A DNA stretch of 64,000 bases from an uncultured Actinomycetes bacterium (GTDB lineage: Bacteria; Actinomycetota; Thermoleophilia; UBA2241). How positions within the stretch are numbered: the first letter of the stretch is position 1; each line of letters starts with the position of its first letter. The notes beneath the pieces are model-generated. The model was not told where the DNA came from. It saw only the letters and a list, made by a program, of their open reading frames with translations, and did no database searches. The stretch covers positions 384,001 through 448,000 of the forward strand of contig CAVPVX010000011.1 in NCBI GenBank assembly GCA_963709345.1, written 5' to 3'. Positions 27,924 to 45,596 of this stretch are shown piece after piece. The translations under genes and the position numbers were made by a program.

Positions 27924-28031
27924 GGGGTGTCTCTCCTTTGAAGCTGCAGGAATAATCCATTGCGGCAAGCAAGACCAGTCAGGTTGGCTCCTTTGGGAGC
28001 CAACCTGACTGGTCCGGGGAAACCTCGAATG

Positions 28032-29471
28032 CTACGCTGCCAGTTTCTCCTCCTCCTTCGCAAGATACCTCCGCTTCGTGAGCCAGGACCATCCGTACCC
28101 CAAGGCAATCAGGACAATCGGCCCGGCATACGTCTCGAGCACCAGGCGTATCGCCTCGCCGGTGCTCTCCGTGCCCATGACATAGTCCAACCCGGCGCCG
28201 AAATACGCGGCAAGACCCAACGCCAGTGTGACGCCGGCTGCGGTGTATGCGCCCGAATCCGCCCGCAACATGGTGAACGGCGCTTCCATCTTCTTGTACC
28301 TGAAGGCGACATACGCCACGACGAGGAGGATGTACGGGATCACCAGCGACAGCGCCGTCATGTTGGTCACGAGTACGAAGAACGATTCCACACCACCGAT
28401 CCCGATCAGCGGAACCGCTATCAGGACGATCAGGACCAGGGCCTGCGTCCAAAGCGCGTTCTTCAACGTGCCGTTCTTGTCTTTGCTGGTAAGGAACTTC
28501 GGGAACGTGCCCTTAGGCACGTCGGCGAACATCGCTCTGATCGGCGATTCCATCCAGACGACGAAGGCGCCTACCGAGGCGATGAAGGTGACGGCGGCGA
28601 ACACGCGGACCGTTATTGCGCCGTTGAGTCCGAAGTTCTCCGCCAGGATCTGATACACGACGTATTCGGCATTCGCCAACCCAGCCTCTTCAAGGGCCTC
28701 CGGCGAGGCGACAAGACTCACGGCAAGCGAGCCGACGACGTACGCCGCAGCCACCAACAACGTCGCGATGATCACGCCGCGCGGGAAGTTCCTCTTCGGC
28801 TTGTCGACGTCGGTGATGTAGGTGCCGGCGACTTCGGCGCCCGCGACGGCGAGGAGCAGCCATGCGAACGTGGCGAAGTAGGTGAAGTCGAAATCAGGGG
28901 TCACGTTCCCGGCCGTGAACGTCGTCGCAGTCGGTTCGCCGAGCAGGTATCCGACAATGGCGAACACGACGAACAGCACGACGAGCACGATGGTGAGCGG
29001 GCCTCCCACATCACTGAGTCGTGAGAAGGAGCGCACGCCTCTGACGGCGATCAAGGTCAGCAGGATACACAGGATCATGCCCATGTACGGCAACCAGTTG
29101 GCATTCGCATCAGTGAATCTGTTCTCCCCGAAGATCGCCCACGACACCATGACGGGTAGTCGGGCGAAGACGTACTGGAGATAGAACAGGTTCGCAACGA
29201 AATACGACCAGGTGCTGATGAAAGCCCATCGCTCCCCAAGGCTGCATTCGACCCAACTGTAGATCCCGCCGCCTTTCTCCTGGTTGGCGGACGCCAGTTC
29301 GGCGATGATGATCGAGAGCGGCAGGAAGAAGAAGAGAGAGACCACGACCCACGACGGGATCGCAGCCGGACCCAACGCCACGGCGTTGGTGGTGACGTTG
29401 CGGAACCCGAAGGTCGGCACGAAGATCAGCATGACCAGCGTAAGCAGGCCTAGCTTCTTTGCGGTTGTCAC
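28032..29471 (-). CDS. APC family amino acid permease (GadC/YjeM-like)
   Basis: About 12 TM segments; GGGIYSWV and AGAEVAG. Confidence 0.88.
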   Translation of the reverse strand: MTTAKKLGLLTLVMLIFVPTFGFRNVTTNAVALGPAAIPSWVVVSLFFFLPLSIIIAELASANQEKGGGIYSWVECSLGERWAFISTWSYFVANLFYLQYVFARLPVMVSWAIFGENRFTDANANWLPYMGMILCILLTLIAVRGVRSFSRLSDVGGPLTIVLVVLFVVFAIVGYLLGEPTATTFTAGNVTPDFDFTYFATFAWLLLAVAGAEVAGTYITDVDKPKRNFPRGVIIATLLVAAAYVVGSLAVSLVASPEALEEAGLANAEYVVYQILAENFGLNGAITVRVFAAVTFIASVGAFVVWMESPIRAMFADVPKGTFPKFLTSKDKNGTLKNALWTQALVLIVLIAVPLIGIGGVESFFVLVTNMTALSLVIPYILLVVAYVAFRYKKMEAPFTMLRADSGAYTAAGVTLALGLAAYFGAGLDYVMGTESTGEAIRLVLETYAGPIVLIALGYGWSWLTKRRYLAKEEEKLAA

Positions 29472-29654
29472 GAGCGCCCCCTTCTCATGCCGTTTTCGGA
29501 TGCCGCGGTGCCCCCTCGTCGATCACCTGCCGGGGCATCGACGATCATGAAGCCACGGTGGCCGCTTCCCATCCGGGGCTTCAACAGGCCGTTTAGACCA
29601 CAGTCATTGTCGTATGTCAATGGTCATATCGGAGAACGGCAGACCGCATCTCGT

Positions 29655-30113
29655 TCACGGCGCAGGCTGGATGCGCCGCCCCCAGCGCAGACCGCAGTCG
29701 CTCTGCACGGACGGCGCCAGGCTCGTCAGCGCGATGAGCGCGCCGACGGACCCCCAGATGGGCTGCTGGACGTTGTAGCCGATCACCCCGTACTCGACCA
29801 CCTCGAAGATGATCAGGCCGCAGCCCACGGCGAAGGCGCCGTACCAGGCCCAGGGCCGGCGCTGCAGCAGGCCGATCGCCACGACGAGCGGGAAGACGCC
29901 GAGGATCAGGAAGAGCAGCAGGCCGGGGACCCGGTAGTCGTGGAACGGCGAGTCCTGGATGTACGAGAGCGGCATCTTGAGCAGGCTGCCGTCCGGTCTG
30001 GCGGCCAGAGCGCCACCACCCGCGAGGCCGCCGACAGCCTGCAGCACGAGCAGCGCGAAGAGCACCCAGCTCAGTAGCGGTCGGCGGCGGCCGTCTGCTG
30101 CGTCTCGTGCCAT
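29655..30113 (-). CDS. hypothetical membrane protein
   Basis: Four TM segments; DGSLL..SPFHDYRVPGLLL. Confidence 0.7.
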   Translation of the reverse strand: MARDAADGRRRPLLSWVLFALLVLQAVGGLAGGGALAARPDGSLLKMPLSYIQDSPFHDYRVPGLLLFLILGVFPLVVAIGLLQRRPWAWYGAFAVGCGLIIFEVVEYGVIGYNVQQPIWGSVGALIALTSLAPSVQSDCGLRWGRRIQPAP

Positions 30114-30179
30114 GGCCGGCTCCTCTCGCGTTGAAGGCGTTGCCGCGCGACAGCGTACCATCCGGCGCCGGGCCGGTGA

Positions 30180-30375
30180 AGACCGCGAGCGAGACCACAA
30201 GGTGAACTACGCGATCGAGGACGCCCAAGGCCTGACGGCCATCGAGGTCAAGAGCGGCCGCGAGCGTGACGGCGACCGTCGCGGCCTCGCGGCCTTCGTG
30301 ACTCGCAACGCCTCTGCGCGCGTGCGCGCGGTCGGCTCAGGCGGTACGCCGCTCGACGAGTTCCTCGCCGAGTAG
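30180..30375 (+). pseudogene. C-terminal fragment of a DUF4143-type ATPase/nuclease
   Basis: ERDHKVNYAIE..LTAIEVKSGR..GLAAF..VGSGGTPLDEFLAE. Confidence 0.65.
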
Positions 30376-30468
30376 GGAGGGGCGAGCGGGCTGCGCGCAG
30401 CACATCGAGCGCCCGCAGCGTCACCCAGCCGCTTCGACAGACCGGCGAGTCGTGCCTACACCGGCCTT

Positions 30469-30519
30469 GGTCGGGTAGTGCGTAGCGGCCCCCGGCCTTT
30501 CTCTTTGGGCAGGATGACC
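30469..30519 (-). ncRNA. DUF3800 3' relic plus conserved hairpin motif (copy B)
   Basis: Minus strand reads VILPKE codons then GGCCGGGGGCCGCTACGCACTACCCGACC, homologous to 32160-32210. Confidence 0.5.
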
Positions 30520-30541
30520 TCGCGCTGATGAGCGGGCGTGT

Positions 30542-30642
30542 ACTACGTGGGGCTCACCGACGTCGCCGCGCTCCTGGGAGTCACGAGGCAGAACGTCCGG
30601 AAGCTCATGCTCGGGTGCGACGCTCCCGCACCCTCGCCGGTG
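30542..30642 (+). repeat. partial duplicate of the HTH segment of CDS 30861-31391
   Basis: Near-identical to about 31105-31205. Confidence 0.85.
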
Positions 30643-30710
30643 GTGGACATTCCCGGTCACCCGTTGAACCGGGCATCCCCGTTCGAGACACTCACGCGGC
30701 ACAGCGTCCT

Positions 30711-30734
30711 TGTGGTTGTCATTTGACAACCGCA
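30711..30734. promoter_or_regulatory. palindromic operator candidate of a TA-like operon
   Basis: TGTGGTTGTCATTTGACAACCGCA upstream of a toxin relic and the HTH gene. Confidence 0.6.
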
Positions 30735-30759
30735 GCCCATCTGCCGATACTGCGAGGGA

Positions 30760-30857
30760 GCATCGTGCCGCGGAGCCCGGAGAACCACGCACGGCAGTTG
30801 CGGCGTGTGGTCGACAGATGCGTCGGGCAGCAGAGGCCCGACGACGGAGAGGAGTGA
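30760..30857 (+). pseudogene. 3' remnant of a small HicA-like toxin gene
   Basis: PRSPENHARQLRRVVDRC resembles, from recall, the end of small genes that precede this DNA-binding protein family; no start present. Confidence 0.45.
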
Positions 30858-30860
30858 CGG

Positions 30861-31391
30861 ATGAGCGAGTTCGAGTTCACGCTCACCTTCTCGCTGCCGC
30901 AGCGGGTCGCCGACGACATCGACGGGCTCGTGGAGAGATTGGGCGCCGCCGGATGCGACGACGCCGTGGTCGGCATCGGGAGGTGGGGCAGGTTGGCGCT
31001 CGCGTTCAGTCGCGAGGCCGATTCCGCGTCCGCCGCGCTCATCAGCGCCTTGGCGGACGTCCGCCGGGCGGAGCCTCGGGCGAGGCTGACGGAGGCTTCT
31101 CCGGACTACGTAGGGCTCACCGACGTCGCCGCGCTCCTGGGAGTCACGAGGCAGAACGTCCGGAAGCTCATCCTCGGGTGCGACGCTCCCGCACCCTCGC
31201 CGGTGCACGCGGGGCACCCCACCATCTGGCGCCTCGCCAGGCTGCTCCGCTGGCTGCGGGATGAGAAGGGCTACCGCGTGCCGCAGGAACTCCTGGACGT
31301 CGCGACAGCGACCCTCCAGGCCAACCTGGCCGTCGAGGCCCGCGACGCGGACGGCGAGGCGCAGAAGGAGCTGGCCGGCCTGCTCGCCTGA
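30861..31391 (+). CDS. HTH DNA-binding protein (HicB-like antitoxin candidate)
   Basis: EFEFTLTF..GCDDAVVGIG..LAFSREA..PDYVGLTDVAALLGVTRQNVRKL. Confidence 0.75.
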   Translation: MSEFEFTLTFSLPQRVADDIDGLVERLGAAGCDDAVVGIGRWGRLALAFSREADSASAALISALADVRRAEPRARLTEASPDYVGLTDVAALLGVTRQNVRKLILGCDAPAPSPVHAGHPTIWRLARLLRWLRDEKGYRVPQELLDVATATLQANLAVEARDADGEAQKELAGLLA

Positions 31392-31442
31392 TGCGGTTCG
31401 ACGGGCTCCGTCGACCCGCCAGTTGACGTTTCACCCCCGTGC

Positions 31443-31535
31443 TTGACCCGGGGCACCGGGCGCGCATAATGGACTCACTGACCCCGCGCCTGACGCGGGG
31501 CGCGAAGCCGCCTCCGGGCGGCTTCTGCTTCTTCC
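31443..31535 (+). ncRNA. promoter plus short structured RNA / orphan leader
   Basis: TTGACC-16 bp-CATAAT, then hairpins CCCCGCG/CGCGGGG and GAAGCCGCC/GGCGGCTTC with a pyrimidine tail; no downstream ORF. Confidence 0.4.
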
Positions 31536-31599
31536 AAGGGTCTCAAGTCGGCATTTGCCCCAAAGACGAAGAAGCCGCGGTGTGCGGCGTGACGTCTGG

Positions 31600-31761
31600 A
31601 TGGCCAAGCGCTTCGAGCTTGAATCGGCGGACAGCTGCGTCATCTCCGTGGCGGCGTAGCCGGCATCGACGATCACGCCACCGAGAACGAACACCGGGTA
31701 CTGCGGGTCGATGACGCTCAGGCTGTGGTCGCCGGACTCGTCGAGGAAGAGGACTTTCATC
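31600..31761 (-). pseudogene. 5' fragment of a DUF3800 gene
   Basis: MKVLFLDESGDHSLSVIDPQYPVFVLGGVIVDAGY, nearly identical to the start of 32189-32929. Confidence 0.85.
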
Positions 31762-31849
31762 CGGCCATCGTAGGCGGGCGCGACGAGCGCGCACAGAGTG
31801 ACAATCGAGGCGCGGCGCGATGGCCGCGGAGAGCGCCGCGGACGCGGCC

Positions 31850-32102
31850 TCAGAGCACCTTCACCCCGTGCCCCTGCAGCCGGGCGGCGGTGGCGTCGAG
31901 CTCGGCCAGCGGCGGGACGAAGATGACCGCCCCATCGCGGCCGCGCGTGAGCAGCACGCGGTAGGCGTTGACGCGCAGCTGGAAGGGATCGCGCACGTGG
32001 GTGCCGCGCGCGTGGTTCTTGGCGCGGGCGTTGGACCAGGCGTCGCCGGTCCACAGCAGGTCGGTGCCCCAGGCGAGCAGCACGCCGTCGAGCTCGAGGC
32101 CC
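31850..32102 (-). pseudogene. orphan 3' end of DUF2075 helicase (copy 3)
   Basis: QGLELD..AWGTD..DPFQLRVNAYRVLLTRGRDG..GVKVL. Confidence 0.85.
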
Positions 32103-32159
32103 TGACCTTCGTCGATTCGCCTTGACACCTCGGCGCATGGTACCGATACTGCTTGCAGA

Positions 32160-32188
32160 GGTCGGGAACTGCGTAGCGGGTCCCGGCC
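32160..32188 (-). ncRNA. conserved hairpin directly 3' of DUF3800 (copy A)
   Basis: GGCCGGGACCCGCTACGCAGTTCCCGACC right after the TAA. Confidence 0.5.
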
Positions 32189-32929
32189 TTACTCTTTGGG
32201 CAGGATGACCAGCCCGGCGCCGAGATAGTCGCCCTTCCTGCGCCGCAGCTTGGACTCCACGATCGCCCAGTCCTCTCGCGGCTTCTTGCCGGCCACGAAG
32301 CGGCCGATGGGGGAGACGACCAGGTCGGCGAGCTCCAGCCCGGCGATGCCCGCCCCTTTGCCCTCGAGTCTCAGGTGGGCGATGCGGTCCCGGATCGCCC
32401 CCGGCCTGAGGAACGCAGTGCCTCGTTCACGCAACTGCTGCGATGACGCGAGCAGAGCGGAATCCAGAACTTGATCGCGGCGCTCTGCAACGATGACGCC
32501 CGGCTGCGTCTCGTGAGTGTCCGCCAACGCGAAACAGAAGCGCTCGACCATCACGCTCAGGCTGAGCGTGTAGGGGTCGAGCGCGGCCGCCCCGTATGCG
32601 GCGAGGTGCGCCTCCTTGCGGATGGTGCAGGCGATCACGGTGTGGTCGAGTCGCCGCATGAGAGCGTTGAGACCGTCGCGAAACGCGCGACGGCGGCCGG
32701 GGTCGACGAGCATGGCGAAGTCTCCCTGCTGGCGAACGATGTCCGCGGTGTGCAGCGTGACGTCATCGCGGCCGAACGGCTCGCGCTTGAACTGGCGCAC
32801 AGCAGCGTCCATCTCCCCAGAGGCGTAGCCGGCATCGACGATCACGCCACCGAGAACGAACACCGGGTACTGCGGGTCGATGACGCTGAGGCTGTGATCG
32901 CCGGACTCGTCGAGGAAGAGGATCTTCAT
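32189..32929 (-). CDS. DUF3800 domain protein
   Basis: LFLDESG N-terminal motif and GLELADLV C-terminal motif. Confidence 0.88.
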   Translation of the reverse strand: MKILFLDESGDHSLSVIDPQYPVFVLGGVIVDAGYASGEMDAAVRQFKREPFGRDDVTLHTADIVRQQGDFAMLVDPGRRRAFRDGLNALMRRLDHTVIACTIRKEAHLAAYGAAALDPYTLSLSVMVERFCFALADTHETQPGVIVAERRDQVLDSALLASSQQLRERGTAFLRPGAIRDRIAHLRLEGKGAGIAGLELADLVVSPIGRFVAGKKPREDWAIVESKLRRRKGDYLGAGLVILPKE

Positions 32930-33017
32930 TCGGCAATCGTAGGCGGGTGCGAAGAGCGCGCACAGAGTGACAATCGAGGGCGGCGCGATGGCCGCGGAGA
33001 GCGCCGCGGACGCGGCC

Positions 33018-33553
33018 TCAGAGCACCTTCACCCCGTGCCCCTGCAGCCGGGCGGCGGTGGCGTCGAGCTCGGCCACGGGCGGGACGAAGATGACCGCCC
33101 CATCGCGGCCGCGCGGTGAGCAGCACGCGGTAGGCGTTGACGCGCAGCTGGAAGGGTCGCGCACATGGGTGCCGCGCGCGTGGTTCTTGGCGCGGGCGTT
33201 GGACCAGGCGTCGCCGGTCCACAGCAGGTCGGTCCCCCAGGCGAGGAGCACGCCGCCCGAGCTCGCAGGCCCTGGGCGCCGAACTCGGTGACGCACTCGC
33301 GCAGGTGCCGGCAGGAGCGATGGCTCTCGTCGCCGTCGCCGTACCAGGGGCCGAGACGCATGACCTTGGTGGACTGGTAGTCGTTGGGGATGCCCCACTC
33401 GGCGAGGATCTTGTCGCGCGAGGAGGCGACGAGGCCGTAGCGGGCGGCGGGAGCCTCCGCATAGCGCTTGTGGAAGTAGCTCTTGGCGGCCTCGAGGTCG
33501 CGGGTCATCCGGAGGTGGTAGCCGGCGGTCTCGAGGCGTTCGGTGAGCTCGCG
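33018..33553 (-). pseudogene. orphan 3' end of DUF2075 helicase (copy 2)
   Basis: GYHLRMTRDLEAAK..RYGLVASSRDK..TEFGAQGL..RVNAYRVLL..GVKVL. Confidence 0.85.
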
Positions 33554-33744
33554 TCTGTCGCACCCGCTCACGGGGTTGGCGCCGATGGCGGCCGCGTCGC
33601 GCCTCCGTGTGAGCAGCGCCCGCGCCCAACGAGCCGGCGTCTCCCTGAATGCCGGGTGCCTCGAGCTTGGATCGGTGAACGCTCAGCCGCCTGCATTGAT
33701 TGCGGAGTATTGCGGAATGCGAGCTCCCATTGCGTCCGGGTGAC

Positions 33745-34790
33745 TCAATTCGAATCGCCCTCGAAACCGGCCGCGAACCAACGGCCGGCGCGGGTGCGAC
33801 CGCGACTCACGACAAGGCCATCGCTGCGCAGTTGCTTCACGAGGTACTGAATCTGGTCTTTCGAAAGCGCCGGCAGCACTTGCCGAAGCTCCGCAAGCGG
33901 ACACCCAACGCTACCGCTGTCCAAGATGTGCCTGAGGAGGAGTTGCTTGTTGGTCTCCTGATCAAGGCCACGTCGCCTCGTGTAGGTGCCGGTGGCCTCG
34001 GTGAACTGATAGTAGCGGCGCGAAAGCACATACCGCACACCGGCGCCACGGCCCACGGACTCCAGCACTCCCGCTTCCACAAGGCGGTGTGCGTGGGGCC
34101 GCAGCTCGGCGGGCATCCTGTCGCCGCTCTCCGCGACGTCGAGCGACATGAAGTCCCGCGTCGAGAACGTCCTGAGCGTCTTCTCGCCGACACTCTCAAG
34201 GAAGCGCAGGAAGAGAGGATTGCGGATCGTCCCGCTGAGCAGAACTGAGACCTGATACTCGTCTGTCTGAGAGTAGTCGGGGCGCGGCTTGCTCTCTCGA
34301 ATGCAGGACTCCAGCATGCGTCGCACTCCCTGGCCTGAGCGGTCGACCAGCCCGCATCGCTCCAGGACGTCTGCGACACGCCGGTTTCGCGGGTCTTGGC
34401 GCCACAGCATGTTCTCGGTGGTGATTCCCGGTGGAAGACCGCCGGGACTGACGACCTCCAGAAGGTCGGGAGCCTGGCGGATGAAGATCGAGCCAGGGCG
34501 GCTGTAGTCGCGGTGCGCGATGGCGTTGAGGATCGCCTCTCGGACGACCTTCTCGCTGAACATCGCGATGTCGCGCACGAGCAGGCCCTCTTGGATCTGG
34601 TGAACGTCGTTGCGGGCGTTGATGACGTCCCAGAGGTCGTCATGACAGAGAAGGAACCCTTGCCGGAACTCCCGCCTCTGCTGATAGCGAAGACTGCTTG
34701 GCTGACTCCGGTACTCGAAGACGACCTCCGCCACCAGCCCGACGCAGAGCACGAGGCTGACGCGGGTGCGCTCTCCCGCCGTCGGGTCGA
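33745..34790 (-). pseudogene. 5'-truncated AlbA/RecG-C type ATP-binding protein (HATPase_c_4 + wHTH)
   Basis: VREAILNAIAHRDY, VSPGGLPPG, PRNRRVADVL, DRSGQGV; the N-terminal domain is missing. Confidence 0.75.
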
Positions 34791-34926
34791 CACCGGCATG
34801 GCGCCAAAGCCGGCTTCATCACCGACCTCGTCGGCGTTTGATATGGGATTACAATGTGATTCATGTGGGTCAGACTCTGTGATTTGGGGTAGGCTGCTAA
34901 TGGAGGCGAACCCGATCGGAGGCGTC

Positions 34927-35322
34927 ATGGCTCAGTTGGCCCCATCCAAGCCAGATCTCACTGCCTACGAGAACTCAATCCGTCTTGAGCCGGCGGAGAT
35001 CGTCCGTGAGCTCAGGGCTCACTTGGGCGCCCGGCTCGTGGCCTTCGTCGCAGGAGTCTCTGAGACTCGAGCCGTTCACGAGTGGGCCGCAGGCGAGCGG
35101 CACATCCGGCAGTCCGACGTACTAGACCGGCTGCGCCTTGCCTATCAGATCGTGCAGTTGATCGGCGCTCGTGACGACGACGCCGTGATCCAGGCGTGGT
35201 TCCAGGGGCTGAATCCCAAGCTGGACGACAGATCTCCTGCGAGGCTGCTCCGCGATGGCCAACTTCACGACGTGGGCCCGGATATCCTGGCGGCTGCGCG
35301 GGCGTTCGCGGCAATCGGCTGA
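34927..35322 (+). CDS. Xre/MbcA-like antitoxin
   Basis: LGARLVAFVAGVSETRAVHEWAAG..QAWFQGLNPKLDDRSPARLLR; GGAGG RBS; precedes a RES gene. Confidence 0.78.
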   Translation: MAQLAPSKPDLTAYENSIRLEPAEIVRELRAHLGARLVAFVAGVSETRAVHEWAAGERHIRQSDVLDRLRLAYQIVQLIGARDDDAVIQAWFQGLNPKLDDRSPARLLRDGQLHDVGPDILAAARAFAAIG

Positions 35323-35327
35323 GGCGC

Positions 35328-36047
35328 ATGACGCTCTGCTTCACGCAGACGGAGGGTCTGGTCTTCCGCGTCGGCTACTCGCCAGACCCCTGGGCGTGGG
35401 TGCCGTGGGAGTACGCCCCGTTCACCGGTCGGTGGGACGATCCTGAGGCGCTCTACCGGACCATCTATGCGGCTTCTTCTGTCGAGGCGTGCTACATCGA
35501 GATCCTGGCGCAGTTTCGGCCCGATCCCGGACTCGATCCGGATCTCGGCGCCATCGTCGGCTGCCCCGAGGATGAAGACTTCAAGAGCAACCCGCCCGGT
35601 GTGGTCGGTCGCAGTTGGCTTCTGGAGCGTCGGCTTGGGTCGGCGCACATCGACGGCCGGTTCGTGGACGTCGGTCACTCACGGACGATCGCCGAGCTCA
35701 GGCCGGTGTTCCTTCCGGTGGCGCTGGGGTTCGGGCTGCCCGACTTCGACGCGGCGGCCGTCCGCATGCATGCTCCTCGCGAGATGACTCAGCTGATCTC
35801 CAGGCACCTGTACGGCCGCGAGACGGCGGACGGCGGTCTCGTATCAGGCGTCGCCTTCGGGTCAAGGCACGGTGACGAACTGCGCCTCTGGGCGCTGTTC
35901 GAGCGCGAGGCCGACGTCGGCAGGGACAGCAGTCACCTCCTGCTGGATTGCCGCGATGAGGTGATCGATGCCGGCAGCGAGGCGTTCAGGCAAGCGCTTG
36001 AGCTTCACGAACTGAGGCTTGAAAGTAGCAGGTCGGGAGCTGCGTAG
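35328..36047 (+). CDS. RES domain toxin
   Basis: VFRVG, GRWDDP..RTIYAA..IEILA and SRHG..WALFE (R-E-S residues). Confidence 0.82.
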   Translation: MTLCFTQTEGLVFRVGYSPDPWAWVPWEYAPFTGRWDDPEALYRTIYAASSVEACYIEILAQFRPDPGLDPDLGAIVGCPEDEDFKSNPPGVVGRSWLLERRLGSAHIDGRFVDVGHSRTIAELRPVFLPVALGFGLPDFDAAAVRMHAPREMTQLISRHLYGRETADGGLVSGVAFGSRHGDELRLWALFEREADVGRDSSHLLLDCRDEVIDAGSEAFRQALELHELRLESSRSGAA

Positions 36048-36073
36048 AAGGCGCCTCACGGCGGGGATGCGGC

Positions 36074-36497
36074 TCAGAGCACCTTCACCCCGTGCCCCTG
36101 CAGCCGGGCGGCGGTGGCGTCGAGCTCGGCCACGGGCGGGACGAAGATGACCGCCCCATCGCGCCCGCGCGTGAGCAGCACGCGGTAGGCGTTGACGCGC
36201 AGCTGGAAGGGATCGCGCACGTGGGTGCCGCGCGCATGGTTCTTGGCGCGGGCGTTGGACCAGGCGTCGCCGGTCCACAGGAGGTCGGTGCCCCAGGCGA
36301 GGAGCACGCCGCCCGAGCTCGAGGCCCTGGGCGCCGAACTCGGTGACGCACTCGCGCAGGTGCCGGCAGGAGCGATGGCTCTCGTCGCCGTCGCCGTACC
36401 AGGGGCCGAGACGCATGACCTTGGTGGACTGGTAGTCGTTGGGGATGCCCCACTCGGCGAGGATCTTGTCTCGTGAGGAGGCGACGAGACCGTAGGT
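36074..36497 (-). pseudogene. orphan 3' end of DUF2075 helicase (copy 1)
   Basis: Near-identical at DNA level to 33018-33440. Confidence 0.85.
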
Positions 36498-36608
36498 GCA
36501 GGGCATGGGGCTCACCTACGCGGCGCGCCGGCGCGGAGACGGGTGGCGCTGGATGACGGGGATGTCCTCGCGGATAGGACCGCTCTGCAAGGTGCGGCTC
36601 GAGAAGAC

Positions 36609-37278
36609 CTACTTGCCCTCGAACGGCACTAGCTTGAAGCGCCAGATCTTGTATCCGGAGCGCCCTCTCTCCTCCCAGTACTTCTCCACGCGATAGAGGC
36701 CTGTCGTATCGATAACCGGCCTTCGGTCCCGAGCCGCCGGGCTCACGCCAGCCTCGGGTCACCCGAACGGGGAGGTCCCAGTCACAGCTGCGCACGAGGG
36801 ACAGATTGGTGCCAGTGAGCGTCTGGTCTGCGATCTGCTGACCGGTTGCAGGGTCCTTTCCTCCGTGGCCGGTGTAGATGATCTCGTCTCTCGAGTCGAC
36901 GTCGTCTTCGTAGCCGCCGTTGAGAACGATGGACTCCGCGCCCGTATCGCCACTCCCGCAGATGCCCGCCTGGAGCGGGCGATGGATGCCCGCCTCGCGC
37001 AGGGCCTTGCGGTTCGGGAAGACGGTGCCCACCGCGACGTCAGGAATCGTACCAATCACGCCGGCCTTCACGGGCCGAGGCGCGGGGAGCTCTGGAATAA
37101 CCTCGTGGGGGATGTCGACGAGCTCGTTGAGCTTAGCCAGGACGCCGGTGGACGGCGTGACGAAGGTCTTCTTGTTGTACCAGCGGCTGCCCGTCCAAAC
37201 ATAGGTCACACCGTCCAGAACATGCTCGGACGCCTGTCCCTCTTTGGCTCTGCGCGGGGATTCGTGCTCAACCGGCAC
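36609..37278 (-). CDS. stand-alone SRA/YDG domain protein, frameshift near 36702
   Basis: AGIHRPLQAGI, AESIVLNGGYEDDVD, IIYTGHGG, PVRVTRG, GYRYD / GLYRVEKYW..IWRFKL, then stop with no HNH domain. Confidence 0.85.
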
Positions 37279-39306
37279 GGGTGTCGAAGGTGAGGGCCAG
37301 TCGGGAGGCGGAGTCCTCGATCGTTGGCTTCCTGATCGCCCAGCATCTTGACCCCAAGTCCCTGGAGCCAGGCGGCAGTCAGGTCGAGCCGAGGGTCTTG
37401 CGGAACGAAGATCACCGCGGCGTCGCGTCCTCGCGTGAGAAGAACGCGATAGGCGTTGACTCTTAGTTGGTAGGGATCCTTGACGTGGGAGCCTCGCTGG
37501 TGGCGCTTGGCGTACTCATCCGACCACTCCTCGGCGGCCATTCGGCCTGACGATGCGGATGAAGTCCATGCCCCACGCGAGCAGAACTGCGTCCGAGTTC
37601 GAGTCCCTGAGCGCCGAATTCCGTGACGCACTGGGTCAGGTTTCTGCACGAGCGGGAGTCGCCATCGCCCTCGCCATACCAAGGACCCAACTGCAAGACG
37701 CTGAGTGGAGTGCCAGCCATTGGCACACCCCAGTCGGTCTCGAAGGACCTTGTCGCGAGACGAAGCGAGCAGACCAAAGCGCGCGTCTGGTGCGTCCGCG
37801 TACCGGCCGACCAGGTAGGCCTTGGCGGTCTCCAGATCGCGAGTCATGCGTAGGTGATAACCGGCCGCCTCCAGGCGCTTCGCCAGTTCGCGGCCGCGCT
37901 GCATGTCGTCGCCTTCGAGAAGCGTTCTCGACCCAGTCATCGAGGTCATCAGCGAAGTGGAAGCGAAGCTCGACGGTGAGTTCGAGGGCTGGGCTTGGCT
38001 GAGTCCTGCGGCGAGTCGCTCTCCGCTGCTCCAGTCCGGTCCGAAGAAGGTGTCCAGCACCCTCTGTGGAGCGTGCACCGTCCAAGACCCGGGGTCGCCG
38101 GCCTTCTCCAGCGCTGTGCGCCACTGACCAAGGCCGGCCTCTTCGCCGACGTGGATCTCCTGACCGGAGCCAATGAGACCGACCAGGACGCTCCAGCCCG
38201 GGATGCGTTCACCGAAGTCGACGAACGCCTCTGGCTCGCTCTTCGGAACGGCAGGCGTGCTTGCTGATGACTTGCTCGAGATCCCAGGCGCGCTGCGCCT
38301 CGTCGTAGACAATCACGTGTTGCGGCGGGACCTGCCGGCTGTCGCCGAGGTACTGCTTGACGTAGTTCTTGACGTCTCGGACGAACGTCTTGCCGCCACC
38401 GCCGGCTCCGCGGAGTTCGTACTGAAGGACCTGGACGAGCGGGCCGTTCCCGCTCAAGAAGATGGCCGGTGCAGTGGGCTTGCCGCCGGCCCTGTCCACC
38501 GACGAGGTCATTGAGCGCCGGATTGTGGACGGCGCTGAGCCCAACCAGAGTCTTGCCAGAGCCCGGCACGCCGGTGACGAGCACGAGGTGGCGCGTATGG
38601 GTGTCGGGCTGCCTCGTGGGCGATCCGCGCGATCTCGTCGATTGCCGGCTGGGTCTCGGCGCGAGCCCGATGAATCGGCCGAACCTTGCCCTCTAGGAAG
38701 AGTTCGCGCGCCGCCTGAACCAGCGTAGGGAGAGGGCAGTAGGCGTCGTGGGCGAGGAACTCCTCAGCCGTGAGCGGGCCATCTTCCCACGGCCGCTGGA
38801 AGTCGGCGATGAGCTGATGTAGAGATGCCGGTCCGCAGATGTGCACGCCGTCGCGCACGCCGATGTAGCCGGGTGCTTGCGTCGGCACGACGACCGCGTG
38901 CACTTCGCGCTCTGCACAGTGCCTGTGGTAGCAGCGGAGGTCACGCGCGTACGCCGATGCCTGGTCGAGGTCAGCCTGGTCAGGCTCGGCCTTGCCCTTC
39001 AGTTCGAGGACCACCACGGCGCCATTGATGAGCAGAACGACGTCTGGGCGACGCGACTCCATCGGCAGCTCGTACTCAAGAATGGCGGTGTACTGGTCGG
39101 CAAGCCCATCAATCTCGACGACCTTGCCAGCCTCCACCTGGATCTTCGGGATGGAGTCGTCCCAGGCGCGGATCTTGCGAGTCGCCGGTCTCGCCGAGGA
39201 ACTCCTCCAGAGAGATGCGGACGATGCGCGGCTCAGCCTCCGAGAAGGTGGGGAAGTCGCTCTCCCAGCCGTAGCGTGCGCGTGCGGAATCGGACTCAGG
39301 CGTCAT
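37206..39306 (-). CDS. DUF2075 (Schlafen group 3-like) helicase with N-terminal PD-(D/E)XK-like domain, multiply frameshifted
   Basis: ILEYELPMESRRPDVVLL..VLELKG; VTGVPGSGKT; VYDEAQRAW; LIGSGQEIHVGEE; TEFGAQGLE; RVNAYRVLLTRGRD, spread over several frames. Confidence 0.85.
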
Positions 39307-39455
39307 GAAGTCGCTCCAATGTCGGCCCCTGCGCTGGCAGTGACGATACTAGTTGACGATTCGGACGGAGCTCAAGGAATCGAGGCTCGACGATCCTAGT
39401 TTGATCGTGGCACACTCGCCCTGCTGACCCGAACCCGCGACCCCGGGAGGTCCTC

Positions 39456-39995
39456 ATGGGCGAGCTCCTTGCCGTCACCTGCGACTCGTGCGGCGAGCCG
39501 ATGGTCCCCAACGTGAGCACGCTGGACGACGACGGCTGCGGCTGGATCTGCCTGAGCCCCGGCTGCCCGGAGCTGGCTGCCGGGGAGCTGGAGGCCGAGG
39601 ACCTGGTGGAGGCCGGCGTGCCGGAGGCGCTCGCCGGCCGTCTCGCGCGGCTGGTCGATCACTACGTGGACGCGGAGGAGGCGCGCGGCCGTGAGGCGGA
39701 CGCGCCCGCGCGGGCGCGCGAGCGGGCGCAGGCCGATCTCGCGCGCCTCCACGCGCTCCTGCTCGAGCTGGGGCGCCTCGCCGAAGGCGCAGGCGCCCTC
39801 GCCGCCCATCTGAGCGACTCGCTCGTCGTCTCGTACCACTCGGACGACTTCGATGAGGCCGAGCAAGCCCGCCAGGCCCTCGCCGCCGTCGGCGCCCTCT
39901 GCGGCGTCCTGCGCCGCACCGCCGGCGACGCCCAGGACCATCTCGCCGGCGTCGACTCCGAGCTGCCGGGGCTGCTCGCCACAGACCACTTCTGA
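39456..39995 (+). CDS. hypothetical Cys-motif protein (repeat gene copy 1)
   Basis: CDSC..GCGWICLSPGC, then a helical Ala-rich body; GGAGG RBS. Confidence 0.7.
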   Translation: MGELLAVTCDSCGEPMVPNVSTLDDDGCGWICLSPGCPELAAGELEAEDLVEAGVPEALAGRLARLVDHYVDAEEARGREADAPARARERAQADLARLHALLLELGRLAEGAGALAAHLSDSLVVSYHSDDFDEAEQARQALAAVGALCGVLRRTAGDAQDHLAGVDSELPGLLATDHF

Positions 39996-40168
39996 GGCGC
40001 CCCCACTCCGCAACGTCCACCGCGAGTGGCCATCGTCACTCTGGTCGTCGCGGCGCGCGCGTCGCAGGCTTCATGCATGCCCGCTGTCACCTCCACACGC
40101 ACTCGCGCCCGCCTCTGCCGGTCTCCATCAGTGGCCCGCAACGTCACCCTCATCCCGCCGCAACGTTG

Positions 40169-40250
40169 TTGCTCTCGGACGCGGGAAAGGTATACTCGTC
40201 TCAATCCTCCCCGCCGTCCGGGTAGTGCCGCACCGGCGGGGCTTTCTTTT
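40169..40250 (+). promoter_or_regulatory. promoter and terminator-like leader of NYN gene 1
   Basis: TTGCTC-16 bp-TATACT, then CCCCGCC..GGCGGGG plus a T-tract; the leader is repeated at 43086-43137. Confidence 0.6.
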
Positions 40251-40270
40251 GACCATTCTCGGACGCCGTC

Positions 40271-40898
40271 GTGACTGCCGGGTCGTCCCGGCGGGTGGTC
40301 GTCTTCCTCGACTATCAGAACGTCTATCACCGCGCTCGTGAGGCCTTCTGTGCCCGAGACGCCCCGGCTCGCGAAGGCCAGGTTGATCTGCTCGCGTCTG
40401 GGTCGTCTGTTGGCGTCCCGAGTCTCGGGCGGCAGCCTCACAAGCGTCCGCGCCTATCGCGGTCGACCAAGCAGGCGGCTTGACCCGCGCTCCTACGCCG
40501 CGTTCCGGCGGCAGACGTGGGCGCAGGCCGAGCGCGGCGCCGGGCTTGTGACCGTCATCGCTCGCGACCTGCGCTATCCGCCTGACTGGCCGACATGGCG
40601 CGCTCAGGAGAAGGGAATCGATGTCGCGCTTGCGGTCGACTTCGTGATGATGGCCGCTCGCCACGAGCACGACGTCGGCGTCTTGTTCTCCAGCGACACA
40701 GATCTTGTGCCTGCGTTGGAGGCGGTGATCGCTCTGCGACCCGGGAGCCCGCCTGCGTGCGAAGTAGCGGCCTGGGCAGCACCCGGCATGCGCCCACGGA
40801 CGCTCTCGGTGAGGGGCGTGCGGCTCCGTCGTCACCTGCTCACAGAGGCCGACTTCCGAGCGGTCGCGGATCCAACGGACTACGCGCGCACGCCATGA
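40271..40898 (+). CDS. NYN domain (PIN-like) ribonuclease, frameshift near 40397
   Basis: VVFLDYQNV, QEKGIDVALAVD and LFSSDTDLVPALE. Confidence 0.85.
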
Positions 40899-40922
40899 GC
40901 GCGCTGCCCCGGCGCGTCAGCG

Positions 40923-41233
40923 CCGGGAGGTCCTCAGGGCGAGCCTCCGCACCGCGACTCCTGCTCGAGCTGGGGCGCCTCGCCGAAGGCGCAGGCGCGA
41001 CGCTGCGCCGCCCACCTGAGCCCGACTGCCGGAGCTGGCTGCCGGGGAGCTGGAGGCCGGACTGGCGGACGACGTTACGCCGAGGCCGGCCAGGAGTCGA
41101 AGCAGGCGCTCGCGGCCGATCTGGCGCCCTCTGCGCCATCTGCTGAGCCGACGGCCGGCGAGGCGCAGGCGCCTGGCCGCCCGCCTGGATCGACTCCGAG
41201 CTGCAGGGGCTGCTCACCGTGGGCGAGTTCTGA
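40923..41233 (+). pseudogene. scrambled copy of the Cys-motif repeat gene (copy 2)
   Basis: Blocks matching 39442-39995 appear in shuffled order. Confidence 0.65.
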
Positions 41234-41371
41234 CTCGTCGCGCTTCGCGTTGAAGGCGGCGCCGGGCGGCGGCCGGAGTCAGGATGGTTGACAATTAGTC
41301 AATCGGTCTTGCCTTCGATGCAATCGGGAATGATAGAATCACAAGCGCTATCGCGACCCGAAGGAGATGCC

Positions 41372-41713
41372 GTGCCGGCAGCCTTGGACACTCAAGCCAG
41401 CCTCGTGGCTCGAATCGTCGAGTTCAGGCAGCAGAGGGACCTCAACCAGAAGCAGCTCGCCGAGGCCATCGGCATTGACCCGGCGTCGATGAACCGCGTC
41501 GAGAAGGGAGAGCGCTCTGTCTCTGTGGCCGAACTCGTCCGGCTGGCATCTGTGCTGAACGTGCGTGTCGAGGATCTGCTCACGTCCACCGAGCCCGTTC
41601 AGAGTATCTGGCTTCGGGCGTCGGGCGAGTCGTCTGCGGTGGTCGTTGAGTCGCTGGACCTCTTTCGAGATGTCATCCGCGACTACTTCGGCGCGCGAGC
41701 GACGGTGGAGTAG
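41372..41713 (+). CDS. XRE-family HTH regulator
   Basis: LNQKQLAEAIGIDPASMNRVEKGER; upstream palindrome TTGAC-AATTA-GTCAA at 41288-41302. Confidence 0.88.
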   Translation: MPAALDTQASLVARIVEFRQQRDLNQKQLAEAIGIDPASMNRVEKGERSVSVAELVRLASVLNVRVEDLLTSTEPVQSIWLRASGESSAVVVESLDLFRDVIRDYFGARATVE

Positions 41714-41719
41714 ACGAGC

Positions 41720-42481
41720 GTGAGCGGATCTCCTGAGAATGCGGCGCGTGAGGCGCGACGCGATCTCTCACTCGGTGCCGACGGGCCTGTCTCCGATCTT
41801 CTTCAGCGCATTGAGATCGGCGATGGAGTCAATGTCGTTCTCGCGAAGCTGCCGGAGGGTGGCCCGGCGGGCGCGTACACGCGGGAGCGCGACGTGCCGT
41901 TCATCCTCGTCAACTCGCGGGAGCCTGTCGTCCGCCAGCGATTCACGCTTGCGCACGAGTACGGCCATCACCGTCTTGGCCACGGGAGCGTCTGCGACGA
42001 GCGCATCTGGTGGGGAGCGACCGACGCACGGGAGGTCGCAGCCAATCGCTTCGCTGCCGAGTTTCTCGTTCCGGTCGCGGGTGTCGATCTCTGGTTCCAG
42101 GCAGAGCAACCAGACACCGTCGGCCTCGAGACGCTTGTGCGCTTGGCCAACTCGTTCGGCGTGAGCTGCGAGACGGCGCTCTGGCGCATCAAGGCGGCTC
42201 GGCGCATGAGCGCCTCGGCGGCCGATCGAGTAAAGAGGCGGCTGGACGCTCACGAACATCACGGACTGCGTAGCGAGCTCGGACTCAGTGTGATCGCTGA
42301 CACGATCAGCATGGCCCAGGGCCTCGAGGTCCGTGTGCCGTCTCGCATGTCGAGCGACGTGGTCAAGGCTCTGGAGTTCGGCATCATCACTCGGGAGCAG
42401 GCGGCCGAGAAGCTGCGCCTGACGGCGTCGCAGCTGGACATCGCGCTGGAGGATCGCAGCCGGGCGCAAGAAGACGAGTAG
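41720..42481 (+). CDS. ImmA/IrrE family zinc metallo-endopeptidase
   Basis: RQRFTLAHEYGH, EVAANRFAAEFLVP and LANSFGVS. Confidence 0.9.
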   Translation: MSGSPENAAREARRDLSLGADGPVSDLLQRIEIGDGVNVVLAKLPEGGPAGAYTRERDVPFILVNSREPVVRQRFTLAHEYGHHRLGHGSVCDERIWWGATDAREVAANRFAAEFLVPVAGVDLWFQAEQPDTVGLETLVRLANSFGVSCETALWRIKAARRMSASAADRVKRRLDAHEHHGLRSELGLSVIADTISMAQGLEVRVPSRMSSDVVKALEFGIITREQAAEKLRLTASQLDIALEDRSRAQEDE

Positions 42482-42487
42482 ACGAAG

Positions 42488-43081
42488 ATGCCGGCCCCCG
42501 TCGAGAAGGCCTCGGTGCCTGTTGTCGCCGGTGCCGAGATCGTCGTGGCCGACACGTCGCCCATTAGGGTTTTCGTTGAGGCCGGTGCTCAACGTGCGTT
42601 CGCGGACTACCTGGGCACCCGCGTTCGGATCACCGTAGATGTCAGGCGTGAGCTTGAAGATGCTGCGCGGTCCCTGGCGGGGCTGCGGCTTCTACTACGG
42701 GAGTGGCCTCCGAGCGACCCAGTCGATTTGCCGCTGGCCCTCATGCAGAAGGCCACGGACATCCTCGGCTTCATCGCCGACGATCCGCGGGCCAGCCTCC
42801 AAGACCTGGGCGAAGTGACGAGCGTCCTCCTGGCCGAGCATTTGCGGGCCATTGGCGAGTGCCGGCGCCCGCTCTTGCTTCTGGACGACGCGCGCCACGG
42901 CAAGAGCCTCGCCAGGCCCCGAGGTCTCGACGTTGTCGACACGCCGGGGCTCGTCGTTGAGATGGTCTGTGCCGAGGCGATCTCGCGGGAGCTCGGCAAG
43001 AAGGTCTGGCGGGCCGCGTTCTCTGATCGAAGCAAGTGGCCGGCGTTCGATGAACGACTTCTGCGGACTTGCGGCAAATAG
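42488..43081 (+). CDS. PIN-like domain protein
   Basis: VVADTS, DVRREL, DLGEVTSV and LLLDD..GKSLA..GL acidic pattern. Confidence 0.65.
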   Translation: MPAPVEKASVPVVAGAEIVVADTSPIRVFVEAGAQRAFADYLGTRVRITVDVRRELEDAARSLAGLRLLLREWPPSDPVDLPLALMQKATDILGFIADDPRASLQDLGEVTSVLLAEHLRAIGECRRPLLLLDDARHGKSLARPRGLDVVDTPGLVVEMVCAEAISRELGKKVWRAAFSDRSKWPAFDERLLRTCGK

Positions 43082-43085
43082 TCGG

Positions 43086-43137
43086 CAATCGTCCTCCCCG
43101 CCGTCCGGGTCCGCCCGCACAGGCGGGGCTTTTTCTT
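43086..43137 (+). promoter_or_regulatory. terminator-like leader of NYN gene 2
   Basis: TCCTCCCCGCCGTCCGGGT..GCAC.GGCGGGGCTTT shared with 40205-40245. Confidence 0.6.
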
Positions 43138-43157
43138 GCGACCTACGGCGCGTGCCC

Positions 43158-43784
43158 GTGACCAGCCCGGTATCGCAACGCGTCGTCGTCTTTCTGGACT
43201 ATCAGAACGTGTATCACCGTGCCCGCGATGCGTTCTGCTCTCCCCGTGCTTCTGCGAACGAGGGCCAAGTCGATCCGGTGGCGCTCGGCCATCTGCTCGC
43301 GGCCCGCGTCCCCGGCGGCTGCCTCTCGGGCGTACGTGTCTATCGCGGCCGTCCCAGTCAGCGTCGCGGACTACGGTCCCACGCCGCGTGTCGGCGACAG
43401 TCGGCCCGATAGGTCAGTCGCGGGGACGGCCTCGTCGTAGTGATGTCGCGCGAACTGCGCTATCCCCCCGACTGGCCAAGGCGACCCGCTCAGGAGAAGG
43501 GTATCGACGTTGCCCTTGCCGTGGATGTCGTCATGCTGATCGCTCGCCGTGAATGCGACGTGGGCATCCTGTTCTCAAGCGACACGGACCTGGTCCCGGC
43601 ATTGGAGGCGGTTCTGGCGCTGCGGCCCGGTGAGGTGGTGGCGTGCGAGGTGGCCGCTTGGGCTGCCCCCGGCAGGCGCCCGCGTTCGCTTTCGGTGCGC
43701 GGCGCGGTTATCCGGAGCCACCACCTTACGGAGACCGACTACCGCGCCGTGGCAGATCCGACTGACTACACGCGCACCGAGTGA
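43158..43784 (+). pseudogene. second NYN domain gene with in-frame TAG at 43410-43412
   Basis: VVFLDYQNV..RRQSAR*VSRG..QEKGIDVALAVD..SSDTD, all in one frame. Confidence 0.8.
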
Positions 43785-43823
43785 CCGGCGCTGCCGCGTC
43801 ACCCGCGACCCCGGGAGGTCCTC

Positions 43824-44363
43824 ATGGGCGAGCTCCTTGCCGTCACCTGCGACTCGTGCGGCGAGCCGATGGTCCCCAACGTGAGCACGCTGGACGACGA
43901 CGGCTGCGGCTGGATCTGCCTGAGCCCCGGCTGCCCGGAGCTGGCTGCCGGGGAGCTGGAGGCCGAGGACCTGGTGGAGGCCGGCGTGCCGCAGGCGCTC
44001 GCCGGCCGTCTCGCGCGGCTCATTGATCACTACGTGGACGCGGAGGAGGCGCGCGGCCGTGAGGCGGACGCGCCCGCGCGGGCGCGCGAGCGGGCGCAGG
44101 CCGATCTCGCGCGCCTCCACGCGCTCCTGCTCGAGCTGGGGCGCCTGGCCGAAGGCGCAGGCGCCCTCGCCGCCCAGCTGAGCGACGCGCTCGCCGTCTC
44201 GTACCACTCGGGCGACTTCGCCGAGGCCGAGCAAGCCCGCCAGACCCTCGCCGCCGCCGGCGCCCTCTGCGGCGTCCTCCGTCGCACCGCCGGCGACGCC
44301 CAGGACCATCTCGCCGGCGTCGACCCCGAGCTGCCGGGGCTGCTCGCTACGGGCGAGCTCTGA
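43824..44363 (+). CDS. hypothetical Cys-motif protein (repeat gene copy 3)
   Basis: 179 aa, nearly identical to 39456-39995. Confidence 0.7.
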   Translation: MGELLAVTCDSCGEPMVPNVSTLDDDGCGWICLSPGCPELAAGELEAEDLVEAGVPQALAGRLARLIDHYVDAEEARGREADAPARARERAQADLARLHALLLELGRLAEGAGALAAQLSDALAVSYHSGDFAEAEQARQTLAAAGALCGVLRRTAGDAQDHLAGVDPELPGLLATGEL

Positions 44364-45579: not shown

Positions 45580-45596
45580 AGGTCGGGCTCGCGCCG

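Follow-up and report, generated by a model that had tools for sequence, protein, structure and literature searches.

We analysed a 64,000-nucleotide (nt) stretch from the genome of an uncultured actinomycete of the class Thermoleophilia (GenBank assembly GCA_963709345.1, contig CAVPVX010000011.1, positions 384,001 to 448,000), referred to here as the window. The window has a G+C content of 69%, and its source assembly comprises 11 contigs, spans 3.1 Mb and is 98% complete. From about 30.2 to 45.6 kb, repeats are numerous and the coding signal is uneven; the genes that flank this island on both sides are long open frames with the usual third-position G+C bias. The island surrounds a divergent gene pair composed of a DUF2075 nuclease-helicase gene, which we call D, and its neighbor, X. 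Three orphan copies of the 3' end of another D allele lie downstream of D, and additional copies of X lie on the opposite side of the pair. The best explanation of this arrangement is a fast-turnover defence island organized around the D-X pair. Throughout, D1 denotes the allele represented by the orphan tails and D2-SRA the resident allele; genomes and loci of relatives carry the prefixes G and L, respectively (G000 is the genome of the window, L056 the G076 locus and L022 the G018 locus). The features of the island are collected in Table 1.

Anatomy of the island

The three orphan tails, A, B and C, are 5'-truncated 3' ends of a DUF2075 gene, all on the minus strand downstream of D. Self-BLAST and a repeat finder agree on their places, as had been claimed in the original prediction, and self-BLAST gives their extents as 31834-32104 (A), 33002-33542 (B, extending to ~33564 when full genes are used for comparison) and 36059-36495 (C). 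All three match Pfam PF09848 (DUF2075 / SLFN-g3 helicase) at positions ~170-353 of 354 and encode nearly identical helicase C-termini. Nucleotide identity is 96.6% between B and C (440 columns), 95.6% between A and C (272 columns) and 92.7% between A and B (534 columns); the A/B repeat continues past the stop codon and takes in the initial 275 nt of DUF3800 sequence. Identity of the tails to the corresponding part of the resident gene (37342-37882) amounts to only 68.5-73.7%, and the motifs GVKVL and DPFQ of the tails read GVKML and DPYQ in the resident gene, so that the divergence described in the original prediction holds. Apart from one weak match to an unrelated helicase, the 3.1-Mb assembly contains no DUF2075 copies beyond the tails and the resident gene.

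The 3' boundary of the tails is constant (stop codon plus ~16-19 nt), whereas their 5' boundaries vary (approximately codons 486, 524 and 578 of the G021 protein), yielding repeat lengths of 547, 422 and 255 nt, respectively. Tails B and C have only the tail and ~16 nt in common, and the 2.6 kb that lie between them are unique. As assembled, tail B contains five one-base indels, tail C one and tail A none. An extra G stands just after GAGCTC or GAACTC at homologous places in tail B (~33256-33266), tail C (~36312) and the resident gene (~37597); tail A has the same sequence context and no extra G.

The resident gene had been described as a full gene at 37206-39306 followed by SRA cargo. As assembled, this interval contains no single open frame but at least six frame segments (profile hidden Markov models, tblastn), and the gene runs on through the SRA domain to a stop at ~36608. 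Intact orthologues in G012 (972 codons) and G002 (897 codons, both stop to stop) encode the nuclease, the DUF2075 helicase and SRA in one frame, and the window copy follows them collinearly up to the last three residues; SRA (Pfam SAD_SRA, E 1.7e-33) therefore forms the C-terminus of the resident protein and is not cargo. In the G012 and G002 frames, SRA and nuclease are fused in one polypeptide, the arrangement by which a modification-dependent Type IV restriction enzyme is recognized. The nuclease domain itself has only a weak HSDR_N match (E 0.0037).

Over its 2.7 kb, D2-SRA differs from its orthologues by 15 indels, 14 of one base and one a two-base deletion. Its ratio of non-synonymous to synonymous divergence (dN/dS) to the orthologues is 0.08, a value that the two intact orthologues also show when compared with each other; this rules out a long pseudogene phase but is compatible with very recent pseudogenization. 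The indels are thus either very recent or consensus errors, and we lean towards error. They lie outside long homopolymers and share no apparent motif; they are dense in D2-SRA and tail B, and rare in tail C, tail A and the adjacent cargo. Their density falls sharply at the borders of D2-SRA. Polishing that was disturbed by reads of similar alleles is one possible cause.

Orthologues of D match the PADLOC model PDC-S41 over profile positions 6-634 of 657 (L027, 664 amino acids (aa), E 1.2e-122; L033, 899 aa, E 5.4e-118), and the window copy matches these orthologues piecewise by tblastn. By these matches D is the PADLOC candidate system PDC-S41, with the domain architecture of Nhi and Nhi-like defence proteins and a predicted anti-phage role. 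No match to a model named Nhi was listed at E ≤0.001. A literature search that did not extend to supplementary tables, where PDC-S41 may be defined, found no paper naming it.

The intervals between the tails hold different genes. The RES-domain gene between C and B is supported by its Pfam match, but its supposed Xre antitoxin partner is not: the upstream 149-codon frame has no Pfam or PADLOC match. Together, the RES gene and this frame are 79.7% identical to L027:3565-4742. In the same interval, the 'RecG-C' relic named in the original prediction proved to be the 3' part of an AlbA_2/HATPase_c_4 gene; it is 90.6% identical to L056:9603-10692, where the gene is whole and carries both domains, and the homology begins ~288 codons into that homologue. 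Beyond tail A, where a helix-turn-helix (HTH) or toxin-antitoxin relic had been proposed, we found none; this part contains a DUF3800 5' fragment, the PDC-M06 candidate pair and a DUF3800 3' stub. PDC-M06B (30861-31391) matches its PADLOC model at E 4.9e-65, and PDC-M06A (30528-30857) only partially (E 5e-07 over 24 residues). A 101-nt segment within the pair (30542-30642) is a 98% identical copy of 31105-31205. The DUF3800 3'-end stretch (30469-30519) also occurs in G018, G019, G027 and G024. At the left edge, the DUF4143 relic matches an open frame in L023 (8711-9907) that encodes AAA_14 and DUF4143. A repeat search revealed no element-like ends on the cargo segments.

On the opposite side of the core, X has more than 250 homologues, all unnamed, and itself matches no Pfam or PADLOC family. 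An AlphaFold model (pLDDT 80) consists of a zinc ribbon and a helical hairpin; we considered X as a hidden recombinase and rejected the idea on the basis of this model and of a Foldseek comparison with the PDB, which gave no match with E under 1. Further copies of X follow on the right: first the scrambled relic X2' and then a full copy, copy 3. Copies 1 and 3 are ~99% identical over a hyperconserved 5' part that includes 23 nt upstream (39433-39790 and 43801-44158). The cargo between the X copies consists of an NYN gene, a CapH/CapP-like pair (HTH and M78 peptidase) with an additional gene of no recognized type, and a second NYN gene. In G021, D, X and the PDC-M05 pair are contiguous; in the window, X copies thus enclose ~3.8 kb of additional DNA. 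The CapH/CapP-like pair (41288-42481) stands without an obvious effector operon, and the PDC-M05A/B pair (44364-45579) consists of a nucleotidyltransferase and a partner.

Table 1. Features of the island, with positions in the window
Feature	Position	Strand	Evidence
DUF4143/AAA_14 ATPase gene, C-terminal relic at left edge of island	30184-30373	+	73.8% nt match to 3' end of L023:8711-9907
Orphan DUF3800 3' end (last codons and ~30 nt downstream)	30469-30519	-	51-nt repeat, 90% identical to 32160-32210
PDC-M06 candidate defence pair	30528-31391	+	PADLOC
DUF3800 5' fragment and upstream region, continuous with tail A	31575-31849	-	A/B repeat; Pfam DUF3800 profile positions 2-27
Orphan tail A, last ~85 codons of D1-type DUF2075 gene, no indel	31850-32104	-	Self-BLAST, Pfam, tblastn
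DUF3800 gene, apparently intact	32189-32929	-	Pfam PF12686 E 9e-09, whole profile
Orphan tail B, last ~180 codons of D1-type gene, five one-base indels as assembled	33018-33564	-	
AlbA_2/HATPase_c_4 ('RecG-C') gene, 3' relic without AlbA_2 domain	33745-34815	-	Pfam HATPase_c_4 E 2.4e-16
RES-domain gene (35196-36047) and upstream 149-codon open frame (presumed antitoxin)	34873-36047	+	Pfam RES E 1.6e-06
Orphan tail C, last ~140 codons of D1-type gene, one +1 indel shared with B	36074-36495	-	
~110-nt spacer of other origin between end of resident gene and tail C	36496-36607	-	77% identical to L056:5059-5137
Resident gene D2-SRA: PD-(D/E)xK-type nuclease, DUF2075 helicase, SRA	36608-39306	-	tblastn with G012 orthologue, Pfam SAD_SRA and PF09848
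Gene X copy 1, 179 aa, zinc ribbon and coiled coil, divergent from D	39456-39995	+	
NYN-domain gene copy 1	40275-40898	+	Pfam NYN E 2.5e-07; PADLOC HEC-09 weak
Gene X relic X2', scrambled: start codon lost, pieces permuted, 3' end kept	40923-41233	+	
HTH (CapH-like), M78 peptidase (CapP-like) and 199-codon open frame of no recognized type	41288-43081	+	Pfam HTH_3, Peptidase_M78; PADLOC capH, capP
Second NYN-domain gene (copy 2), with an in-frame stop as assembled; identity to copy 1 72%	43092-43785	+	
Gene X copy 3, full length	43824-44363	+	
PDC-M05A/B pair directly after X copy 3	44364-45579		PADLOC

Outside the island, self-comparison of the whole window showed palindromic stretches at 27973-28014 (42 nt, 90% self-complementary) and 63328-63388 (~61 nt, 82%).

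Origin of the tails and recurrence in relatives

The D1 allele is intact or nearly so in several relatives, whose genes are 92% (G017), 89% (G010), 86% (G021) and 94-95% (G076, locus L056) identical to the tails. The resident allele is ~80% identical to its orthologues in G012 and G002 and ~75% identical to D1 over the whole gene length. That D1 and D2 differ along the entire gene argues that the last event replaced the gene as a whole and not just its tail, and that the crossover did not fall in the 3' half of the helicase, where the original prediction had placed the recombination that exchanges tails.

The differences among the tails suggest how they diverged. In the frame of the intact D1 gene, B and C are separated by eight synonymous and no non-synonymous changes in 139 codons; with ~26% of sites synonymous, the chance of eight in eight is ~2e-05. 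Tail C and the intact G076 allele differ by 12 synonymous and two non-synonymous changes. Tail A differs from both B and C by ~6 synonymous and ~4.5 non-synonymous changes each, some in the first aligned codons, next to the junction, and others deeper in the tail. Decay in place should have produced mostly non-synonymous changes, so the purely synonymous B/C differences point to divergence while these were working alleles. Most likely, the tails diverged as parts of functional genes, the counter-signs being a shared indel and a poorly resolved tree that are weighed below; the orphans would then be displaced ends of once-functional alleles, in agreement with the earlier view of them as old tails pushed downstream, with different cargo in each gap.

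Two junctions were traced. Junction A (32104/32105) is a clean, non-homologous switch from a point ~90 nt past the DUF3800 stop to D1 codon ~578, as defined by its two parental sequences: the region downstream of DUF3800 in G017, and tail B as the uninterrupted gene. The sequence shared at this point is a few bases at most, with no common core. The distal join at junction A is thus illegitimate, being without homology. At junction C, the stop of D2-SRA is followed by ~110 nt of unrelated sequence, and D1 homology begins at 36495. Exact 28-mers across junctions A and C are absent from the metagenome contig collection, an absence that we did not count against the junctions.

A match to the tails is present in 27 of the 54 genomes of the genus (G000 included). 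In nine of these 27, at least two separate copies lie on one contig (G000, G076, G018, G019, G003, G027, G004, G064 and G067), so that the comparison of neighborhoods proposed in the original prediction did uncover orphan tails with variable cargo. Many of the copies in relatives comprise only the last 40-100 nt of the gene. At least two pieces of the X core occur on one contig in seven of the 27 genomes, and X 3' orphans in four of 18 X-bearing loci. The cargo in relatives includes RhuM, AbiEii, DUF4143 ATPase, NYN, AlbA_2, SacI endonuclease, NOV_C, GNAT and DUF6941, as well as TetR, a pyridoxal phosphate (PLP) decarboxylase and peptidases. In G027, a 50-nt tail stub located 12 kb from D abuts the homologue of the window's left flank gene; we looked for such a stub beside that gene in the window and found the DUF4143 relic instead.

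Surveys beyond the genus provided controls. Among 71 D loci of many phyla, self-BLAST with the first, middle and last 300 nt of D detected no head, no middle and seven tail fragments outside the gene (two of the seven doubtful), and a protein-level search found orphan tails in three of 80 D loci from all phyla. The orphan-tail habit is concentrated in this thermoleophilian genus.

Several features of these loci are recorded here as separate observations. In a gammaproteobacterial metagenome-assembled genome (MAG), which supplied one of the seven tail fragments counted above, an orphan tail with a 51-nt perfect repeat lies 1.9 kb downstream of a PDC-S41 gene (L101:2335-6367), and the interval between gene and tail holds DUF899 and an additional gene without assigned family. 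In G018, a 360-codon frame (L022:5956-7038) joins AlbA_2 (Schlafen core) in frame to a DUF2075 tail fragment and shares the stop of the tail, forming a Schlafen-like mosaic. Seven relatives have, downstream of D and sometimes directly after it, a gene whose frame spans 340-445 codons from stop to stop and shows weak similarity to SQHop_cyclase_C and prenyltransferase toroids (L024:14582-15661, L021:14187-15209, L027:4775-5863, L029:9747-10859, L030:11757-13094, L032:10454-11491 and L025:7547-8728); none was seen in the window.

Proposed serial displacement and its alternatives

Recombinases were searched for in four families, with five genomes per family; other recombinase families lay outside the search. 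Phage_integrase (PF00589) had no match inside the islands of G000, G027, G019, G018 and G003, and Resolvase (PF00239), rve (PF00665) and DDE_Tnp_1 (PF01609) had none inside those of G000, G027, G019, G018 and G076. For these families, the integrase-free character that had been proposed for the locus is borne out here and in four comparable islands. Tyrosine recombinases are encoded elsewhere in these genomes, and a ComEC homologue is present.

We consider it an even call that the island arose by serial, homology-anchored illegitimate displacement, as proposed for Rhs and type VI secretion system (T6SS) loci. The course of events is inferred, as are its order, the anchor, the enzymes and the way in which DNA gets into the cell. 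In this course, DNA of related strains or species would enter repeatedly and pair through the conserved D-X core, and the far, non-homologous end of the incoming DNA would undergo an illegitimate join, either within the resident gene or past it. Every such event would install a complete new D (or X) along with the donor's neighboring genes and delete the core-proximal part of the old content, leaving the resident 3' end and the old cargo further out. Repetition would generate the stack of tails C, B and A on the D side and X2' and X3 on the X side, and the tail copies could later serve as substrates for ordinary homologous recombination, by which intervening segments are reordered, duplicated or lost. 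Truncation from the core side also fits three further relics: the 3' part of RecG-C, the DUF3800 3' stub and X2'.

Conservation of the core suggests where pairing might occur. In every one of the 15 pairs formed by six genomes, those of the window and of five relatives, nucleotide identity is 89-98% over the 5' half of X, compared to 66-91% for D, and the proportion of synonymous differences (pS) is 0.02-0.21 in the X 5' half and 0.38-0.61 in D between the same genomes. Such a low pS fits a recombination anchor: the X 5' half appears to be the segment best suited to provide homology, and the conserved D-X core is the likely anchor. The 3' half of X evolves fast, with a proportion of non-synonymous differences (pN) of 0.06-0.18 and a pS of 0.02-0.27. 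A structured RNA or tRNA was considered as the cause of the conservation of the X core and rejected: Rfam gave two chance-level matches only (29000-46000), and the sole tRNA lies at 58327-58424.

A broader proposal makes the D-X pair the hub of a RecA-driven accretion that needs no integrase and in which the X 5' half, and to a lesser extent D, would act as a cross-species homology handle that captures a new helicase allele and the donor defence genes beside it. Like an onion, the island would then expand outward in both directions, with older modules behind stubs of the core genes, and the stubs would provide portable homology for loss, duplication and exchange of cassettes. Taken jointly, these claims are doubtful. 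If they were true, defence islands could quite generally be assembled in this way, with no need for mobile-element machinery and with a readable stratigraphy of acquisitions.

A number of observations weigh against serial displacement. A +1 indel occurs in the same column of tails B and C, and D2 shows one at the corresponding position; if the indel common to B and C is real, one tail was copied from the other after pseudogenization, which contradicts independent origins unless a consensus error was repeated. The tail tree, built on the last 255 nt, has too little sequence to decide on separate origins of A, B and C. Tails A and B form a 1170-nt tandem-type repeat, also expected from simple local duplication, and both the DUF3800 5' fragment (31575-31849) and the DUF4143 relic misfit truncation from the core side. 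On the X side, the copies that persist are full genes with a ribosome-binding site rather than 3' stubs, and the NYN-to-X junction is homologous in both copies (72%); this side therefore resembles an inherited or transferred array more than a set of fresh illegitimate joins. Ku was not found in our search, which makes classical end joining an unlikely source of the illegitimate step. Neither a donor nor a pre-insertion haplotype was found, so that no event is reconstructed from end to end. Finally, the assembly consists of multiple contigs, and the best public sequencing run holds a fraction of only 0.14 of the sampled words.

The strongest rival, which we nevertheless regard as unlikely, is local rearrangement alone: unequal crossing-over or template switching would have duplicated the 3' part of D with its neighbors, and later replacements would have changed the cargo, with no repeated import. 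This would explain why the A/B unit combines a tail with the start of DUF3800, and why B and C have a +1 indel in common. It also suits the scrambled mosaics, such as the permuted pieces of X2' and the 98% identical internal duplicate of 101 nt, and the segment order of the window, which is permuted relative to G018. In the tail tree the two G076 orphans are sisters (support 100/99), and A, B and C group weakly (81/90), as local duplication would predict; but the same weakly supported group includes an orphan of another species (G004), which places a foreign copy among the window tails. Local rearrangement also sits poorly with B/C differences that are synonymous only, eight to none, with the restriction of B/C similarity to the tail and ~16 nt, the 2.6 kb between them being unique, and with a resident gene that is a different allele altogether.

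Site-specific elements with an attachment (att) site in the 3' end of D, whose integrase acted in trans or was lost, are improbable. Each element would bring a replacement gene end, and elements would stack in tandem as at tRNA-gene islands. The constant 3' boundary of the copies, the att-like size of many copies in relatives, the clustering of 5' boundaries near codons 484-494 (window tail B and three G076 copies) and the recombinases found elsewhere in these genomes would all suit this explanation. Against it stand the differing repeat lengths and 5' ends, junction A without a shared core, cargo without element-like ends, and the lack of matches to the four families in the islands searched; moreover, the last event swapped the entire gene for a 75%-identical allele, which att integration does not do.

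It is highly improbable that the assembler or polisher chained alternative strain haplotypes so that the orphans do not lie on one chromosome: the frequent one-base indels in tail B and the resident gene would agree with a consensus upset by reads of similar alleles, chained haplotypes would give tail differences resembling those of live alleles, as found here, and the junction 28-mers are missing from the metagenome collection, but each orphan starts in mid-gene beside unrelated sequence, so that chaining would need reads with exactly such joins, the flanking genes are long and intact, the assembly contains no alternative island contig, and comparable arrays occur in eight other genomes of the genus, including highly fragmented assemblies (350-1070 contigs), and in the gammaproteobacterial MAG.

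Comparison with known systems

Tyrosine-integrase islands in the 3' end of a tRNA or protein-coding gene, and the cassette arrays of integrons, are familiar ways in which genes are stacked at one site. As in 3'-end islands, direct repeats of a gene 3' end bracket the cargo of the D side, and the newest cargo would lie beside the intact gene with older cargo further away. Unlike such islands, this one has variable boundaries and no core repeat of fixed length, and no integrase was found. In contrast to integron cassettes, no attC-like sites were apparent, and Rfam gave no significant match in 29000-46000.

Displacement of C-terminal ends is reportedly a feature of Rhs genes (Jackson et al. 2009). 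For the effector-immunity arrays of the Vibrio cholerae T6SS, the accessible part of one study describes sequential displacement by homology-facilitated illegitimate recombination (Kirchberger et al. 2017, PMC5361080). As far as that part of the account goes, the resemblance is close: one complete gene is followed by orphaned 3' regions and their old neighbors, no integrase is found, the proposed anchor is conserved and lies upstream, and the arrays would later be moved between strains by homologous recombination. The differences lie in what is displaced and kept. Displaced T6SS ends, in the same part of the study, are variable toxin domains with retained cognate immunity genes, which give an obvious selective reason to keep them, and neither is present here. 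At our locus the displaced ends hardly differ in the protein that they encode, the genes kept are unrelated defence or toxin-antitoxin modules (DUF3800, RES, the AlbA_2/HATPase_c_4 relic and PDC-M06) rather than a polymorphic toxin domain with its cognate immunity gene, and copies pile up on both sides of a divergent gene pair. The analogy with polymorphic toxin loci drawn in the original prediction thus stands for the mechanism, but not for diversification, since nothing in the helicase is diversified.

The gene itself is best compared to Nhi and Nhi-like proteins, single-gene anti-phage nuclease-helicases (bioRxiv 10.1101/776245, 10.1101/2022.05.11.491447). Judging from the portions of these reports available to us, D shares with Nhi an N-terminal PD-(D/E)xK-type nuclease and a DUF2075 superfamily 1 (SF1) helicase, and its orthologues match PDC-S41 end to end; unlike Nhi in those portions, the window allele adds SRA, and in Actinomycetota the gene is paired with X.

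Core defence hotspots lie between conserved genes, and their transfer by homologous recombination through the flanks has been proposed (Johnson et al. 2023, PMC10250203). To the extent that the available part of that work describes them, they have in common with the D-X island a chromosomal site, changing defence content and few mobile-element scars. Here, unlike in the hotspots so described, the homology lies in mid-island, in the D-X core, rather than at the flanks, and a legible stack of stubs was left behind. A literature search for defence islands with gene fragments found only general hotspot papers.

It is an open question how defence systems come and go in chromosomal islands that show no mobile-element genes. 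The D-X locus preserves an unusually legible record of such turnover, with three stacked stubs, mirrored repeats of the partner gene, and recurrence in about one third of the gene-bearing relatives. If serial displacement is correct, the process proposed for toxin loci would also build anti-phage islands, with a conserved gene pair as the handle. The locus is not a new kind of machinery. As the best fit, its displacement would resemble a known process and differ from it in the non-polymorphic nature of the displaced ends, in the retention of unrelated modules, and in that both genes of a divergent pair leave copies behind.

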